Numbered from the stretch's first letter, positions 1,371 to 14,325 are shown. The stretch: DNA of 32,000 nucleotides from Fibrobacter succinogenes subsp. succinogenes S85 (GCF_000146505.1 NC_017448.1:2340001-2372000); one strand, 5' to 3'. The notes: generated by a model from the letters alone, not told the origin. Numbers and translations: made by a program.

Positions 1371-1544
1371 GGAGCCTAAAATTTCCCATTTTCACTCAAA
1401 AAAGTGTAAATTTAAGGTGTCCGGTCTGCATGGCCGGGTCGCAACTTGACATTTGATACAGACAACAAAAACGCCAATTTCGGGTGCGGCTGTTGCCAAC
1501 GGCCGCCTGGAACCCTTTATTTATGCAGGTTCCAGAGGGGTACT
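1371..1544 (+). promoter_or_regulatory. CRISPR leader copy L0 (internally deleted)
   Basis: Starts GGAGCCTAAAATTTCCCATTTTCACTC like the other leaders. It lacks about 80 nt, including the TTGTAA-N16-TATTAA promoter block. Confidence 0.7.
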
Positions 1545-1575
1545 CCCTGAAAAGCATTCCTCTCGCAAGAGAGAT
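1545..1575 (+). CRISPR. array A0: orphan single truncated repeat with no spacer
   Basis: CCCTGAAAAGCATTCCTCTCGCAAGAGAGAT runs directly into the T-tract and the sRNA promoter. Confidence 0.7.
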
Positions 1576-1625
1576 CTTTTTTCAAAAAACAGGTTGACAC
1601 TTTTGTTGTCTTTGTCGATATATGT

Positions 1626-1706
1626 TATGTCAGACGCTCGTTACGTTCGGCATAACATTTTACTCCTGAGGTTGGCGGTCCCGGTAAAAATCGGGGCCGT
1701 TTTTTA
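1626..1706 (+). ncRNA. trailer sRNA copy 0 (variant 1)
   Basis: TTGACA at 1594-1599, N17, GATATA at 1617-1622. Hairpin GTTATGTCAGACG..CGTTCGGCATAAC, single-stranded ATTTTACTCCTGAGG, then terminator stem plus T-run. Confidence 0.5.
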
Positions 1707-1724
1707 TTTGGCAATTGAGAGCGC

Positions 1725-1979
1725 GGAGCCTAAAAATTCCCATTTTCACTCAAAAAAGTGTAAATTTAAGGTGTCCGGTCTGCATGGCCGGGTCGCAACT
1801 TGACATTTGTTACAGACAACATTCGTGTTACCATGCCGAAATTGAGCTAAAAACGCCAATTTTGGGTGCTTTTTAGGGTTTTGTAAAGAAAAATTAAAAT
1901 TCTATTAAGTGCTTTTGCGTGCAGTTGTTACCAACGGCCGCCTGGAACCCTTTATTTATGCAGGTTCCAGAGGGGTACT
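1725..1979 (+). promoter_or_regulatory. CRISPR leader copy L1
   Basis: Conserved ~255-nt block. Candidate pre-crRNA promoter TTGTAA at 1881-1886, N16, TATTAA at 1903-1908. Hairpin CTGGAACC..GGTTCCAG sits just before repeat 1. Confidence 0.75.
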
Positions 1980-2379
1980 CCCTGAAAAGCATTACTCTCG
2001 CAAGAGAGATTAAGACTTAAACTCTTTTGTTGCTTTGAAGGGATTAAAATAGCCCTGAAAAGCATTACTCTCGCAAGAGAGATTAAGACTTTCATATTGT
2101 TACCTCCTAGAATTTTTCTATTCCCTCCCTGAAAAGCATTACTCTCGCAAGAGAGATTAAGACTTTGCAATCTTTGCCATGATCTTGGTCTTAGTGTTTT
2201 CCCTGAAAAGCATTACTCTCGCAAGAGAGATTAAGACAGAACACGCATTTCAGTATCGAGCCTTTCCTTGTCACCCTGAAAAGCATTACTCTCGCAAGAG
2301 AGATTAAGACCATCACTCATCTTTTTGAGTACCTCTGCAGGTACATCACCCTGAAAAGCATTACTCTCGCAAGAGAGAT

Positions 2380-2468
2380 GGCAACCTGGCGGTTGCCTGC
2401 TTGTCGGCTCGGTCATGCCCACGCAAGCGTGTTCGCGACGCTCGCCTCTGTCGCAGTAAGACTTGGAA
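2380..2468 (+). repeat. RSE, alpha type
   Basis: Splits the repeat that starts at 2349, after GAGAGAT. The 83-nt core ends GCAGTAAGAC, followed by linker TTGGAA and then CTCTCGCAAGAGAGATTAAGAC. Confidence 0.9.
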
Positions 2469-2558
2469 CTCTCGCAAGAGAGATTAAGACGGAGCTGGTT
2501 CCCATTCAGCAGATTCAATTGCTGATCCCCTGAAAAGCATTCCTCTCGCAAGAGAGAT

Positions 2559-2700
2559 GGCAACCTAGCGGCTGCCAGCTTGTCGGCTCGGTCATGCCCG
2601 TGCAAGCACGGTCGCGACACTCGCCTCTGTCGCAGTAAGACTTGGAAAGCGTAAAGCACTAACGTCATTGCAAGGAGTATAACGACGCGACGATCCACAA
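2559..2700 (+). repeat. RSE, alpha-prime type, with a 59-nt tail
   Basis: Core at 2559-2641 with hairpin 2 CGTG-CAAG-CACG. A unique tail at 2642-2700 precedes the terminal half-repeat. Confidence 0.85.
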
Positions 2701-2764
2701 CTCTCGCAAGAGAGTTTTTTTCAAAAATCTGGTTGACACTATTGTTGTCTTTGTCGATATATGT

Positions 2765-2845
2765 TATGTCAGACGCTCGTTACGTTCGGCATAACATTTT
2801 ACTCCTGAGGTTGGCGGTCTCGGTAAAATCGGGGCCGTTTTTTTT
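2765..2845 (+). ncRNA. trailer sRNA copy 1 (variant 1)
   Basis: TTGACA at 2733-2738, N17, GATATA at 2756-2761. Same hairpin, CCUC-containing segment and terminator as copy 0. Confidence 0.5.
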
Positions 2846-2924
2846 ATGTGGTTGACGTTCTTCTATATCAAAGAGATATAATGGTTGTCGGGCGCATGGG
2901 GCGTTCGGAAAAAAGAGGTAAAAT

Positions 2925-3020
2925 ATGAAAACTATTCAGCAAAGCATTTGGACTATTCCGTGGGGCGACATCCCGACTCCCCCGAAAATTTCATTTTTTG
3001 AGTCGGCGCTTTCATTCTAA
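2925..3020 (+). CDS. smORF1, 31 aa (MKTIQQSIWTIPWGDIPTPPKISFFESALSF)
   Basis: TTGACG at 2852-2857, N19, TATAAT at 2877-2882. SD AGAGGT lies 7 nt before the ATG. Conserved in 6 cassette copies, with synonymous-only changes in codons 5-23. Confidence 0.5.
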   Translation: MKTIQQSIWTIPWGDIPTPPKISFFESALSF

Positions 3021-3079
3021 AACGATAAAAACAGAAGGGTGCAATGTTGCACTGTCAAACCTTAACGGAGGATACCTCA

Positions 3080-3142
3080 ATGAGACCGATTGTCGCATCT
3101 GTTGATGAAACCGAAATCGAAATCCTTGCAAAACACTGCTAA
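3080..3142 (+). CDS. smORF2, 20 aa (MRPIVASVDETEIEILAKHC)
   Basis: SD GGAGGA precedes the ATG. Conserved in 6 copies; the differences are an in-frame 6-nt indel and a TAA/TGA stop swap. Confidence 0.4.
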   Translation: MRPIVASVDETEIEILAKHC

Positions 3143-3175
3143 TCAACGAATAAAATTTCAAACTAAAGCTTTAAA

Positions 3176-12435: not shown

Positions 12436-12524
12436 TATGTCAGACGCTCGTTACGTTCGGCATAACATATTTACTCCTTAGGTTAGGTTGGCGGTCCCGG
12501 TAAAAATCGGGGCCGTTTTTTTTA
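12436..12524 (+). ncRNA. trailer sRNA copy 7 (variant 1 with a small insertion)
   Basis: TTGACA at 12404-12409 and GATATA at 12427-12432. Confidence 0.5.
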
Positions 12525-12602
12525 TGTGGTTGACGTTCTTCTAAATCAAAGAGATATAATGGTTGTCGGGCGCATGGGGCGTTCGGAAAAAAGAGGTAAA
12601 AT

Positions 12603-12698
12603 ATGAAAACTGTTCAGCAAAGCATTTGGACTATTCCATGGGGCGATATCCCGACTCCCCCGAAAATTTCATCTTTTGAGTTGACGCATCCATTCTGA
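12603..12698 (+). CDS. smORF1 copy (MKTVQQSIWTIPWGDIPTPPKISSFELTHPF)
   Basis: Promoter TTGACG at 12530-12535 and TATAAT at 12555-12560. Synonymous change CCG>CCA. Confidence 0.5.
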   Translation: MKTVQQSIWTIPWGDIPTPPKISSFELTHPF

Positions 12699-12761
12699 AA
12701 ACCGATAAAAAGACAGAAGGGTGCAATGTTGTACTGTCAAACCTTAACGGAGGATACCTCA

Positions 12762-12824
12762 ATGAGACCGATTGTCGCATCTGTTGATGAAACCGAAATC
12801 GAAATCCTTGCAAAACACTGCTAA
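12762..12824 (+). CDS. smORF2 copy
   Basis: Same peptide as the copy at 3080-3142. Confidence 0.4.
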   Translation: MRPIVASVDETEIEILAKHC

Positions 12825-12857
12825 ACAACGAATGATATTTCAAACTAAAGCATTAAA

Positions 12858-12889
12858 ACCCGGTGTCAAAAACCGGGCCATTTTTTTTG
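12858..12889 (+). terminator. terminator of the smORF module
   Basis: Stem followed by T8. Confidence 0.6.
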
Positions 12890-12906
12890 TTGTCAATTGG
12901 GGATGC

Positions 12907-13161
12907 GGAGCCTAAAATTTCCCGTTTTCACTCAAAAAAGTGTAAATTTAAGGTGTCCGGTCTGCAAGTCCGGGTGGCAACTTGACATTTGTTACAGACA
13001 ACATTCGTGTTACCATGCCGAAATTGAGCTAAAAACGCCAATTTTGGGTGCTTTTTAGGGTTTTGTAAAGAAAAATTAAAATTCTATTAAGTGCTTTTGT
13101 GTGCAGTTGTTGCCAACGGCCGCCTGGAACCCTTTATTTATGCGGGTTCCAGAGGGGTACT
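12907..13161 (+). promoter_or_regulatory. CRISPR leader copy L8
   Basis: Homologous to L1, with a few substitutions in the CCGG hairpin. Confidence 0.75.
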
Positions 13162-13341
13162 CCCTGAAAAGCATTCCTCTCGCAAGAGAGATTAAGACGA
13201 CGAATGCCCCACGTGCATCACCAAGTTTGTCTTCACCCTGAAAAGCATTCCTCTCGCAAGAGAGATTAAGACTTCCCCTATCTTTCCGTGGAAAGTCATT
13301 GTTTATTTTCCCCTGAAAAGCATTCCTCTCGCAAGAGAGAT

Positions 13342-13503
13342 TGCAACCTGGCGGTTGCCTGCTTGTCGGCTCGGAAATGGTCCCGCAAGCGGTCCCGCTT
13401 CGCTCGCCTCTGTCGCAGTAAGACTAAAGAAAAGCGGAATATACCTCACAATGTCATCCCGGTCCTATGCCGGGAACGCCATGTTTCTCTGAAGATAAAA
13501 GAC
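13342..13503 (+). repeat. RSE, beta type, with a 79-nt tail
   Basis: Core at 13342-13424. The tail is homologous to 6454-6532, with a compensated hairpin TCCCGG/CCGGGA. Confidence 0.9.
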
Positions 13504-13592
13504 CTCTCGCAAGAGAGATTAAGACAGAGTGAACTTGTTATTGTTTTCTTCAACCTTCTTCCCCTGAAACGCATTCCTCTCGCAAGAGAGAT

Positions 13593-13684
13593 TGCAACCT
13601 AACGGTTGCCTGCTTGTCGGCTCGGAAATGGTCCCGCAAGCGGTCCCGCTTCGCTCGCCTCTGTCGCAGTAAGACTTGGAAATT
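13593..13684 (+). repeat. RSE, beta type
   Basis: Core at 13593-13675, followed by linker TTGGAAATT. Confidence 0.9.
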
Positions 13685-13919
13685 CTCGCAAGAGAGATTA
13701 AGACATAATTTCTGCTGCCTTATTTTCTACAGGGAATGACTCCCTGAAAGGCATTACTCTCGCAAGAGAGATTAAGACGTGATCAGTTCCGAACCTAATT
13801 CCGCAATAGAAGTCATCCCCTGAAAAGCATTACTCTCGCAAGAGAGATTAAGACTCAAGAATTTGGGGTCGAACGTCAATTTCCATAACCCTGAAAAGCA
13901 TTACTCTCGCAAGAGAGAT

Positions 13920-14091
13920 GACAATCTTCGATTGTCTGCTCCTAGGCTCGGCAATGGAAATGCAAGCATTTCCGCTGCGCTCGCCTTACGTCGCAGTGCT
14001 GGCCTACGGCACAGCAAGTGTGCGGCTCAGCCATGCCCGTGCAAGCACGGTCGCGGCATTCGCCTTGAACACTTGTAAGACTCCTCATTAA
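13920..14091 (+). repeat. RSE, delta-prime type (dimer with a divergent second monomer)
   Basis: The first monomer matches 4129-4205. The second monomer is divergent and ends CACTTGTAAGAC at 14081. The 3' half-repeat is degenerate (CGAGAGATTAAGAC). Confidence 0.8.
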
Positions 14092-14239
14092 CGAGAGATT
14101 AAGACGCTGTTTCTTCATCAATGATCTTGAACCAGGTATAATCCCGCTAAAAAGCGCTTCTCTCAAAAGAGAGATGACTCCCTTGCGTTTTTTTTTCAAA
14201 AAACAGGTTGACATTTTTGTTGTCTTTGTCGATATATGT

Positions 14240-14325
14240 TATGTCAGATGCTCATTACCGTTTGATTGAACATATTACCTCCGTTGTTGAAGGCGGCTCC
14301 GGTGAAAATCGGGGCCGTTTTTTTG
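14240..14325 (+). ncRNA. trailer sRNA copy 8 (variant 3)
   Basis: TTGACA at 14208-14213 and GATATA at 14231-14236. Stem GTCAGATG/CGTTTGAT, single-stranded segment ATATTACCTCCGTTG, then a terminator with T7. Confidence 0.5.

Follow-up and report, generated by a model that had tools for sequence, protein, structure and literature searches.

At positions 1369-14325 of the 32,000-nt stretch of Fibrobacter succinogenes subsp. succinogenes S85 DNA analysed here (NC_017448.1:2340001-2372000, referred to as the window), a spacer bank of short palindromic repeats that are clustered and regularly interspaced (CRISPR) lies beside a type III-D CRISPR-Cas system and carries nine copies of its leader. Most likely, interchangeable modules were duplicated and recombined many times over, and the bank was thereby split into nine mini-arrays, each transcribed on its own. 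These building blocks would comprise a promoter block bearing either cas1-cas2 or two small open reading frames (smORF1 and smORF2), a terminator, a leader of ~257 nt and an array, together with one or more copies of a structured element, here called E, inside the repeats, a repeat hairpin reused as intrinsic terminator, and a small RNA (sRNA) with an anti-Shine-Dalgarno-like stretch. What the sequence shows directly is the order of the modules, with sites resembling promoters and terminators, the presence of just one cas1-cas2 pair, the covariation in the fold of E and the coding conservation of the smORFs. CRISPR arrays are usually viewed as repeat-spacer strings with one leader that yield guide RNAs only. 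The locus is a new variation on CRISPR organisation and holds a new structured RNA family and two conserved micro-genes. On the features legible in its DNA, it is a bona fide CRISPR array set of type III-D, in which every defining feature tested was found except an identifiable Cas6.

Leaders, repeats and arrays

The leaders start at 1369, 1723, 3220, 5830, 7052, 8573, 10285, 11776 and 12905, each within 2 nt of the nine starts given in a preliminary description of this DNA, whose observation is confirmed. Eight of the nine are full length (~257 nt) and mutually 95-99% identical; leader 1 (1369-1544) has lost ~81 nt internally, and behind it stands a single truncated repeat with zero spacers. 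With eight 300-nt copies at 90% identity or above, a chance origin is impossible. The repeat, CCCTGAAAAGCATT[A/C]CTCTCGCAAGAGAGATTAAGAC, is 37 nt long, is confined to the + strand and recurs every 73-76 nt; within it, a 5-bp hairpin whose loop is GCAA stands before AUUAAGAC. As the preliminary description had stated, the arrays are short and their spacer sets differ: each has 0-8 ordinary spacers, and the 41 regular spacers are all distinct apart from one tandem duplicate, a repeat-spacer unit at 10764-10838 and again at 10839-10913 in which the spacers differ by a single C/T. Pyrimidine-rich spacers number 31 of the 41, a skew opposite to that of the local coding strand, and this would be the bias expected of type III CRISPR RNAs (crRNAs) antisense to mRNA. 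The single-nucleotide repeat variant AAAAGTATT is present in both repeats of array 4 and in no other array, which would fit duplication of the first repeat during acquisition at leader 4. At the ends of arrays 1-7 (n=7) the repeat hairpin runs directly into a T-run, and arrays 8 and 9 end in degenerate versions of the same arrangement. The locus thus combines constant direct repeats, unique spacers of similar length, leaders with promoter-like sites, truncated terminal repeats and an adjacent cas1-cas2 pair, as CRISPR arrays do. The ordered block first described as recurring throughout is reiterated as far as leader, array and terminator are concerned; the sRNA module follows eight of the nine arrays, and the smORFs belong to six of the nine units.

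Cas1 of the window (4527-5558) is identical to the protein encoded on CP001792.1, the S85 chromosome, and across 15.5 kb the window differs from that record (locus L001, in which the window begins at position 5475) by one mismatch and one 1-nt indel. The locus is present on two S85 chromosome records, of 3,842,635 bp and 3,843,004 bp, and since both assemblies carry the reiteration, the reiterated structure is reproduced. The preliminary description had itself raised the case of an assembly artefact, and this explanation, here a mis-expansion of one array and its leader, is hardly credible. Short-read S85 assemblies do break on both sides of cas1-cas2, leaving contigs of 1.5-1.8 kb, so that the region is evidently hard to assemble, and repeats flanking these genes would produce such breaks. 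However, the two chromosome records of unequal length agree, the copies are 1-5% divergent with unique spacers and unlike E contents, and the same design, with two or three leaders per contig, is found in independently assembled contigs of relatives from metagenomes and metagenome-assembled genomes. The S85 genome paper lists five CRISPRFinder arrays at the locus and does not describe the cassettes, a curation paper counted 29 CRISPRs in S85, and our literature searches found no account of the split-array architecture or of E.

The map of the units follows in window coordinates, where domain 2 denotes a longer segment found after some E copies and T2 the second terminator of a unit.

1369..1544, +, leader 1, shortened, remaining part 95-97% identical to that of other leaders
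1545..1582, +, array 1, 0 spacers, single truncated repeat, terminator of hairpin and T-run
1594..1705, +, sRNA module 1 (TTGACAC-N17-GATATA, 5' hairpin, ACAU..CUCC, terminator)
1723..1979, +, leader 2
1980..2721, +, array 2, 6 spacers, hairpin and T-run at 2701-2721
2378-2462 and 2557-2641, +, E elements of array 2 (58-nt extension on the second)
2733..2847, +, sRNA module 2
2925..3020, +, smORF1 copy after array 2, 31 aa
3080..3142, +, smORF2 copy after array 2, 20 aa, T2 at 3173-3204
3220..3477, +, leader 3
3478..4349, +, array 3, 5 spacers, terminator 4329-4349
3730-3814 (with 39-nt domain 2), 3943-4029 and tandem 4127-4205 / 4206-4289, +, E elements of array 3
4362..4526, +, cut-down sRNA module and terminator (4398-4429), then cas1 promoter and hairpin of the 5' untranslated region
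5830..6086, +, leader 4
6087..6555, +, array 4, 2 spacers, repeat variant AAAAGTATT, terminator 6533-6555
6187-6273 and 6369-6453 (with 79-nt domain 2), +, E elements of array 4
6567..6678, +, sRNA module after array 4
6763..6858, +, smORF1 copy after array 4
6918..6974, +, smORF2 copy after array 4, 18 aa, in-frame 6-nt deletion, T2 at 7005-7036
7052..7308, +, leader 5
7309..8062, +, array 5, 4 spacers, terminator 8041-8062
7412-7495, 7590-7674, 7768-7852 and 7950-8034, +, E elements of array 5
8077..8191, +, sRNA module (variant 2) after array 5
8277..8372, +, smORF1 copy after array 5
8434..8496, +, smORF2 copy after array 5
8573..8829, +, leader 6
8830..9777, +, array 6, 8 spacers, terminator 9755-9777
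9303-9387, 9485-9568 and 9589-9675, +, E elements of array 6
9791..9902, +, sRNA module after array 6
9987..10082, +, smORF1 copy after array 6
10146..10208, +, smORF2 copy after array 6, T2 at 10239-10270
10285..10541, +, leader 7
10542..11268, +, array 7, 6 spacers (two are the tandem duplicate), terminator 11247-11268
10945-11029 and 11123-11207 (with 39-nt domain 2), +, E elements of array 7
11280..11395, +, sRNA module (variant 2) after array 7
11481..11576, +, smORF1 copy after array 7
11636..11698, +, smORF2 copy after array 7, T2 at 11729-11760
11776..12032, +, leader 8
12033..12393, +, array 8, 3 spacers, degenerate terminal repeat and T-run at 12359-12393
12209-12293, +, E element of array 8
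12404..12523, +, sRNA module after array 8
12603..12698, +, smORF1 copy after array 8
12762..12824, +, smORF2 copy after array 8, T2 at 12855-12886
12905..13161, +, leader 9
13162..14197, +, array 9, ~7 spacers, degenerate hairpin and T-run at ~14160-14197
13340-13424 (with 79-nt domain 2), 13591-13675 and tandem 13918-13996 / 13997-14081, +, E elements of array 9
14208..14324, +, last sRNA module (variant 3)

The structured element E

The most conserved and most unusual component of the locus is E, which the preliminary description had omitted. It is ~85 nt long, occurs in 22 copies and interrupts the repeat after ...GAGAGAT, ending in TAAGAC; then come 6-7 nt or the longer domain 2, and a second repeat hairpin with ATTAAGAC. 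The insertion point in the repeat is constant, and a duplicated 16-nt hairpin segment bounds every insertion. The copies represent several sequence types with one fold, made of a 5' hairpin (P1) and a long irregular hairpin. The closing stem of the long hairpin varies (CTGC/GCAG, CAAATGG/CCATTTG, CAAGTGT/ACACTTG), as does its middle 3-bp stem (GTC/GAC, GAA/TTC, GCA/TGC), the apical stem is freely variable under a CAAG or CGAG loop, and the internal-loop residues GGCUCGG ... AUG ... CGC ... CUCGCC are invariant. The fold predicted by RNAalifold has 21 pairs, and compensatory changes occur in 15 of these. Among 102 distinct E sequences 95.5% of cells are paired, a figure somewhat inflated by the fitting of this alignment to the model, and an independent MAFFT alignment gives the same picture. 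Double changes affect 16 of the 21 pairs, the cells with double changes number 331 against 86 in shuffles, the covariation score is reached by none of 500 shuffles, and controls with slid partners are 19.5-47.8% paired. An invariant U-G pair indicates an RNA read from the + strand. Judged by this covariation, E is a new, strongly supported structured RNA family, previously undescribed.

A covariance model detects E in every related locus bearing this repeat; Neisseria loci and a Cas1 relative at greater distance gave no copy. In metagenomes, 34 loci with 172 E model matches were retrieved by a pattern scan; the contig names are metagenome-style and the loci are presumed to come from rumen or gut samples. 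The same kind of scan over viral contigs gave no copies. Rfam 15 has no match to E at the gathering threshold, with chance-level terminator matches only up to an E-value of 1, and ARAGORN reported no transfer RNA or transfer-messenger RNA. A pseudoknot between the P3 loop GCAAGC and GCUUGU, used in the minimum-free-energy fold of a single sequence, was discarded since it is absent in CUGCUCAGC and in the type C/D variants. A peptide starting at the invariant AUG was discarded as well, as it would change with the covariation in P3, lacks a ribosome-binding site and is out of frame in type C.

Within S85 the leader-proximal repeats are ordinary and E is distal, usually including the last unit before the terminator, and in an uncultured Fibrobacter relative (L011) a 21-spacer array carries E in its final repeat only. 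The same unit of E with domain 2 is terminal at 6369 and internal at 13340, and likewise terminal at 11123 and internal at 3730, as recombination between hairpins that fused neighbouring arrays would leave them. The E-bearing repeats are flanked by unique spacers, which implies that E moves or converts independently of its neighbours. Between TAAGAC and the following hairpin lie 6-7, 39, 50-59, ~70 or ~79 nt, which form discrete classes, and most copies belong to the shortest one. The longer classes of domain 2 have in common GUCAU, C-rich residues and a hairpin that covaries between lineages (ATTCT/AGAAT, ATCCTC/GAGGGGAT, ATTCCCG/CGGGAAT), and the constraint on them is therefore structural rather than that of a guide sequence. 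By BLAST, domain 2 has no antisense match longer than 10 nt in the window. A hammerhead-like reading of domain 2 was rejected on inspection for its misfitting core positions. Domain 2 or the sRNA as antisense regulator of local genes was rejected because BLAST gave chance matches only (10 nt or less) and RNAduplex, run for the sRNA, no outlier.

Inter-array modules, cas genes and relatives

A promoter-sRNA-terminator module follows arrays 1, 2 and 4-9, and a cut-down copy precedes cas1. Its promoter-like site is TTGACAC-N17-GATATA, and all 24 distinct variants of the sRNA have a 5' hairpin, an unpaired ACAU...CUCC stretch whose invariant CUCC resembles an anti-Shine-Dalgarno sequence, and a terminator. 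When the sRNA was paired with 19 translation-initiation regions by RNAduplex no outlier was seen, and its pairing with the smORF ribosome-binding sites was no better than with unrelated genes. Coding by either strand of the sRNA was dismissed, as 1-nt loop indels break the frames and the mini-ORFs on the minus strand lack conservation. In the promoter (TTGACAC TTTTGTTGTCTTTGTC GATATA) the 17-nt spacer is conserved across species as strongly as the hexamers, and contains (e.g. at 1594-1622 and 2733-2761) GTTGTC/GACAAC motifs in common with the TTGACATTTGTTACAGACAACA box of every leader (e.g. 3297-3331); these common motifs may be a shared operator for some regulator. The terminators T1 and T2 are hairpins with T-runs on the + strand, and a scan counted 89 terminator-like sites against 18.8 expected.

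The module of smORF1, smORF2 and terminator, headed by a second promoter block, is found after arrays 2, 4, 5, 6, 7 and 8. smORF1 encodes 31 aa (MKTIQQSIWTIPWGDIPTPPKISFFESALSF) and smORF2 18-20 aa (MRPIVASVDETEIEILAKHC in the 20-aa copy), with GGAGGA (smORF2) or AAGAGG as upstream ribosome-binding sites. Between S85 and L011, smORF1 keeps MK..QQS(I/V)W(T)(I/L)PWGDIPTPP with a variable C-terminal tail, and its PWGDIPTPP core is kept through CCG>CCT, GAC>GAT and CCG>CCT; smORF2 keeps M(R/S)PI(V/I)ASVDETEIEILA(K/N)HC with three synonymous and three non-synonymous differences. In this small sample of S85 versus L011, judged by substitution counts, both smORFs behave as small protein-coding genes whose peptide is conserved across species. 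Among 1.84 billion representative proteins, smORF1 matched only spurious repetitive translations, and the smORFs gave nothing significant in PHROGs. The inter-array block had no match in phage and plasmid collections, so that the other case raised by the preliminary description, a known insertion sequence or prophage fragment, found no phage, plasmid, PHROGs or viral-contig similarity on its side; the same holds for a miniature inverted-repeat transposable element. Nor does the locus resemble an integron, since no integrase is present, the only candidate being an invertase-like ORF at 14847-15191, and the invariant U-G pair of E argues for a structure at the level of + strand RNA.

A single cas1-cas2 pair (4527-5830) fills the smORF slot after array 3, leader 4 begins directly past the cas2 stop codon, and the promoter and 5' untranslated hairpin block of cas1-cas2 is homologous to the block upstream of smORF1. 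The same promoter block stands upstream of csx1 (via smORF1) in L011, and since it is common to cas1-cas2 and csx1 it may be a general regulated cas promoter; if so, smORF1 and smORF2 might encode leader peptides with a regulatory role, or else small effectors. The effector operon has the Cas10d, Csx10 (Cas5), Csx19, several Cas7 proteins including fused ones and the CARF effector that mark type III-D, with PADLOC Cas7_IIId matches of 1e-68 to 2e-149 and the NCBIfam families TIGR04423 and TIGR03986.

4527..5558, +, cas1 (Pfam Cas_Cas1, 4e-78)
5555..5830, +, cas2 (TIGR01573, 8e-15)
15373..24284, +, type III-D effector operon (Pfam, NCBIfam, PADLOC)
15373-16671, +, csx1 (PADLOC CARF-HEPN, 3.6e-199)
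16664-18181, +, cas10d (PADLOC Cas10d, 1.6e-162)
18193-18744, +, cas7, effector operon member
18729-20222, +, cas5/csx10 (PADLOC Cas5_IIId, 5.6e-155)
20222-21625, +, double cas7, effector operon member
21625-22017, +, csx19/cas11 (PADLOC Csx19/Cas11, 5e-49)
22017-24284, +, large cas7, effector operon member

The same architecture is found in several Fibrobacter lineages with effectors of either type III-D or type III-B. A scan of a genome collection with Cas1 returned just one Fibrobacter locus; the relatives compared here are the following, and eight further contigs have two or three leaders each.

L011, uncultured Fibrobacter: Cas1 80% identical to S85; 3 leaders; E, sRNA and both smORFs; syntenic with S85
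L015-17: Cas1 74%; III-B (Cmr); 3 full leaders and truncated mini-leaders; many E, sRNA modules, no smORFs
L018/L024 (one contig): Cas1 61%; III-B; 1 divergent leader beside cas1 and 2 more past the cmr genes

The effector operon of L011 is led by csx1 as in S85, its first gene translating like S85 Csx1 (judged without a family-library scan). The III-B relatives with the same repeat have a Cas6 gene at the end of E-rich arrays. On the L018/L024 contig the cas1-adjacent leader is 60% identical, and past the cmr genes there is a second array region, with a cas6 gene at its end. At 8632-10320 of L024, identity to S85 is 95% for the sRNA module and 92% for the leader; E is present from the very first repeat behind this S85-like leader, and the array is succeeded by cas6 at 10451-11374. 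An S85-like cassette in a genome with such distant Cas1 and cas1-adjacent leader implies that exchange of the cassette is not tied to the cas genes. The leaders of one genome group together (95-99% identity within S85, 93-97% within L011, 80-84% within L015, 76-80% between genomes), which indicates an old multi-leader state with either concerted evolution or a recent amplification in S85. The sRNA, smORF, leader and trailer parts of S85 have different genealogies, and since the sRNA and smORF parts group differently, the cassettes are mosaics. The cassette, proposed in the preliminary description as the unit of duplication or selection, is accordingly a real modular block that moves apart from the cas genes, but it is not rigid and its parts recombine. 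The mini-leaders of L015 (9095-9200, 9810-9905) consist of the promoter-bearing first third fused directly to a hairpin-only repeat and head stretches rich in E and degenerate repeats, which suggests that E expression may be maintained even where acquisition signals are lost.

Several neighbouring genes were also recorded. Two adjacent IIGP/dynamin-like GTPase genes, with a possible defence role, lie just upstream of leader 1 (window 250-1266; L001 4952-6740), and the same GTPase end precedes the first leader of L011 (~7600-8167), so that the boundary of the locus is syntenic. Directly after the last sRNA module is an ORF of 165 aa (14333-14830, + strand; 142 aa in the CP001792 annotation) with no match in Pfam, NCBIfam, PADLOC or PHROGs, and absent from the equivalent place in L011. 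The invertase-like ORF (14847-15191, - strand, 114 aa) lies between the last array and csx1; it matches PADLOC C3a178 'putative invertase' at 3.2e-38, belongs to no Pfam or NCBIfam family, and has no counterpart at that position in L011. L011 in turn has a gene of ~320 aa between array 2 and leader 3 (13680-14645), not present in S85, which looked transposase-like (PD-(D/E)XK/Rpn-type) by eye. At 28355-31685 on the - strand are two paralogues of ~525 aa with a CarboxypepD_reg-like domain and then an esterase/lipase-like domain, one of them with weak matches to type IX secretion C-terminal signals; both are ordinary flanking genes.

Mechanism, alternatives and meaning

In the scenario that we favour, each leader would drive its own short pre-crRNA that stops at the hairpin and U-run, so that all spacers would sit near a promoter, and the single Cas1-Cas2 could add spacers at several leader-repeat junctions. 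At each repeat hairpin an enzyme, which in relatives would be Cas6, would cleave the pre-crRNA at the hairpin's 3' base and so produce the 8-nt tag AUUAAGAC. Because E lies between two hairpins, the same cuts would free it as an RNA of ~105 nt (longer with domain 2) having the repeat hairpin as its 3' end, and would leave the adjacent crRNAs undamaged. The normal trailer of an array would be E, domain 2, hairpin and U-run; internal E copies would be former array ends fused by recombination, and homologous recombination between leaders, repeats and terminator hairpins would duplicate, fuse and reshuffle the units. Our best guess is that E is a stable, processing-dependent passenger RNA that either caps or insulates the pre-crRNA 3' end or binds a protein of the system. 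The role of a cis stabiliser or insulator is offered tentatively, and a trans-acting role is put as slightly less likely. It is likewise a possibility on the unlikely side that the arrays double as operons for non-guide RNA, with E as a new class released by repeat processing and having a trans-acting job of its own. If that were true, the job could be the sequestering or scaffolding of Cas or host proteins, a decoy against phage counter-defence or the sensing of type III signals, and amplification of the cassette in S85 would reflect selection for the dosage of E and of the linked sRNA and peptides, not for immunity alone.

Some observations count against this scenario. Transcription starts, terminator efficiency and RNA species are predictions. 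Pfam, NCBIfam, PADLOC and tblastn recognise no cas6 in L001, in L011 or in the window from S85, and neither tblastn with the Cas6 of relatives nor one protein-database search gave an S85 match. Single-sequence folding of E units beats shuffles only modestly (z = -1.3 and -2.3), and hence the support for the fold comes from covariation. The leader-proximal E of L024 means that E is not strictly a trailer, and the three spacers searched have no exact protospacer match in IMG/VR.

Among the alternatives, E and possibly the whole block from terminator to leader could be a selfish non-autonomous element homing into repeats, which would enter by gene conversion or by aberrant Cas1-Cas2 integration at GAGAGAT|TAAGAC and persist as the flanking crRNAs stay intact. 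The constant insertion point with its duplicated 16-nt segment and the unique spacers on both sides speak for such an element, as do identical units of repeat 5' part, E and repeat 3' part in different arrays with different neighbours (3913-4059, 6157-6303, 9559-9705), the 96-98% identity of E between species whose leaders are ~78% and Cas1 80% identical, and the S85-like cassette in a distant genome. However, transposase, reverse transcriptase and terminal inverted repeats were not found, nor copies in viral contigs, a DNA-level spreader would not need a strongly covarying RNA fold, and E gathers at array termini, as in L011 with its 21 E-free repeats and then a single terminal E. A purely selfish origin is improbable because the RNA fold is strongly selected and the copies concentrate at array ends. 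It is less plausible still that the units linked to E are crRNA-like regulators resembling CreA/CreR, with TAAGAC as tag and a domain 2 of 39-79 nt as guide, by which the type III complex would reach a transcript of the host or of the cassette: TAAGAC does stand directly after the closing stem of E as it does after the repeat hairpin, and one class of domain 2 is 39 nt, near spacer length, and conserved between S85 and L011, but the domain 2 hairpin covaries between lineages, no antisense match exceeds 10 nt in the window, and most E copies are followed by 6-7 nt only.

The inter-array module raises another possibility, to which we give little credence, namely that the sRNA, smORF1 and smORF2 form an addiction or guard module, toxin-antitoxin-like and with the purpose of CreTA, that stabilises the arrays or the locus; selection on the guard would have amplified the module and array splitting would be a by-product. 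Consistent with this, the peptides are kept between S85 and L011 via synonymous changes and occur also in further metagenome loci, the anti-Shine-Dalgarno-like CUCC is invariant and unpaired in all sRNA variants, and the modules, for which phage, plasmid and protein libraries contain no homologue, lie precisely in the intervals between directly repeated leaders, from which they could easily be deleted. Yet the peptides are not hydrophobic, unlike typical type I toxins, and the sRNA is encoded on the same strand, neither overlaps the smORFs nor is antisense to them, and forms no outstanding duplex. Moreover, the smORF module is missing from the L015 and L018 lineages, although they have the multi-leader and E architecture, smORFs are also missing from three of the nine units in S85, and the occupation of the same promoter slot by cas1-cas2, and by csx1 in L011, suggests an ordinary regulatory block.

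Genomes with several arrays and duplicated leaders are already known, including the long-repeat and short-repeat loci of Methanocaldococcus jannaschii and those of Sulfolobus and Thermus. S85 is like them in having one repeat family, the same leader before each array and one adaptation module, and unlike them in that its units stand head to tail within 13 kb with very short arrays, a conserved, apparently expressed inter-array module with its own promoters and terminators, and structured RNAs inside the repeats at the array ends. CreA and CreR are repeat-pseudo-spacer-repeat units in which the pseudo-spacer pairs with a promoter. The likeness to CreTA/CreR lies in small non-crRNA genes of degenerate repeats beside arrays or cas genes, a toxin-like small gene and the idea of self-protection or regulation; E differs as an 85-nt covarying fold with no detectable target, domain 2 likewise covaries as a hairpin and shows no such complementarity in the window, and unlike RNA toxins the S85 smORFs encode conserved peptides. 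ToxI of type III toxin-antitoxin systems consists of 36-nt repeats cut by the toxin that they inhibit. Like ToxI, the S85 arrays would be tandem RNA precursors cut by an endoribonuclease into structured units, whereas the copies of E stand among true spacers, with a CRISPR repeat hairpin on either side, and have no identified partner protein. In synthetic cassettes flanked by Csy4/Cas6 sites or tRNAs, a cargo RNA between processing hairpins is excised and its neighbours are undisturbed; unlike these, what S85 has is a natural arrangement that exists in many copies and is conserved in evolution. A survey of candidate structured RNAs in CRISPR operons (PMC9067536) mentions neither Fibrobacter nor III-D in its main text. 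The candidates described there, like trans-activating crRNA (tracrRNA) and scoutRNA, are structured non-guide RNAs within CRISPR-Cas loci, but they lie outside the repeats and tracrRNA pairs with the repeat, whereas E is inside the repeats and has no anti-repeat.

The locus indicates that a bank of adaptive immunity can comprise many short units, each promoted and terminated, which bears on how spacer expression and acquisition sites are distributed. A strongly conserved structured RNA has colonised the repeats at a place where the cuts of crRNA processing would excise it cleanly, so that the arrangement of E is a natural counterpart of the engineered Cas6-flanked RNA cassettes and possibly a new class of CRISPR-associated RNA. 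The intervals between the arrays hold conserved micro-genes and an sRNA of anti-Shine-Dalgarno-like character. As F. succinogenes S85 is cultivable, all three departures are directly testable in this organism.

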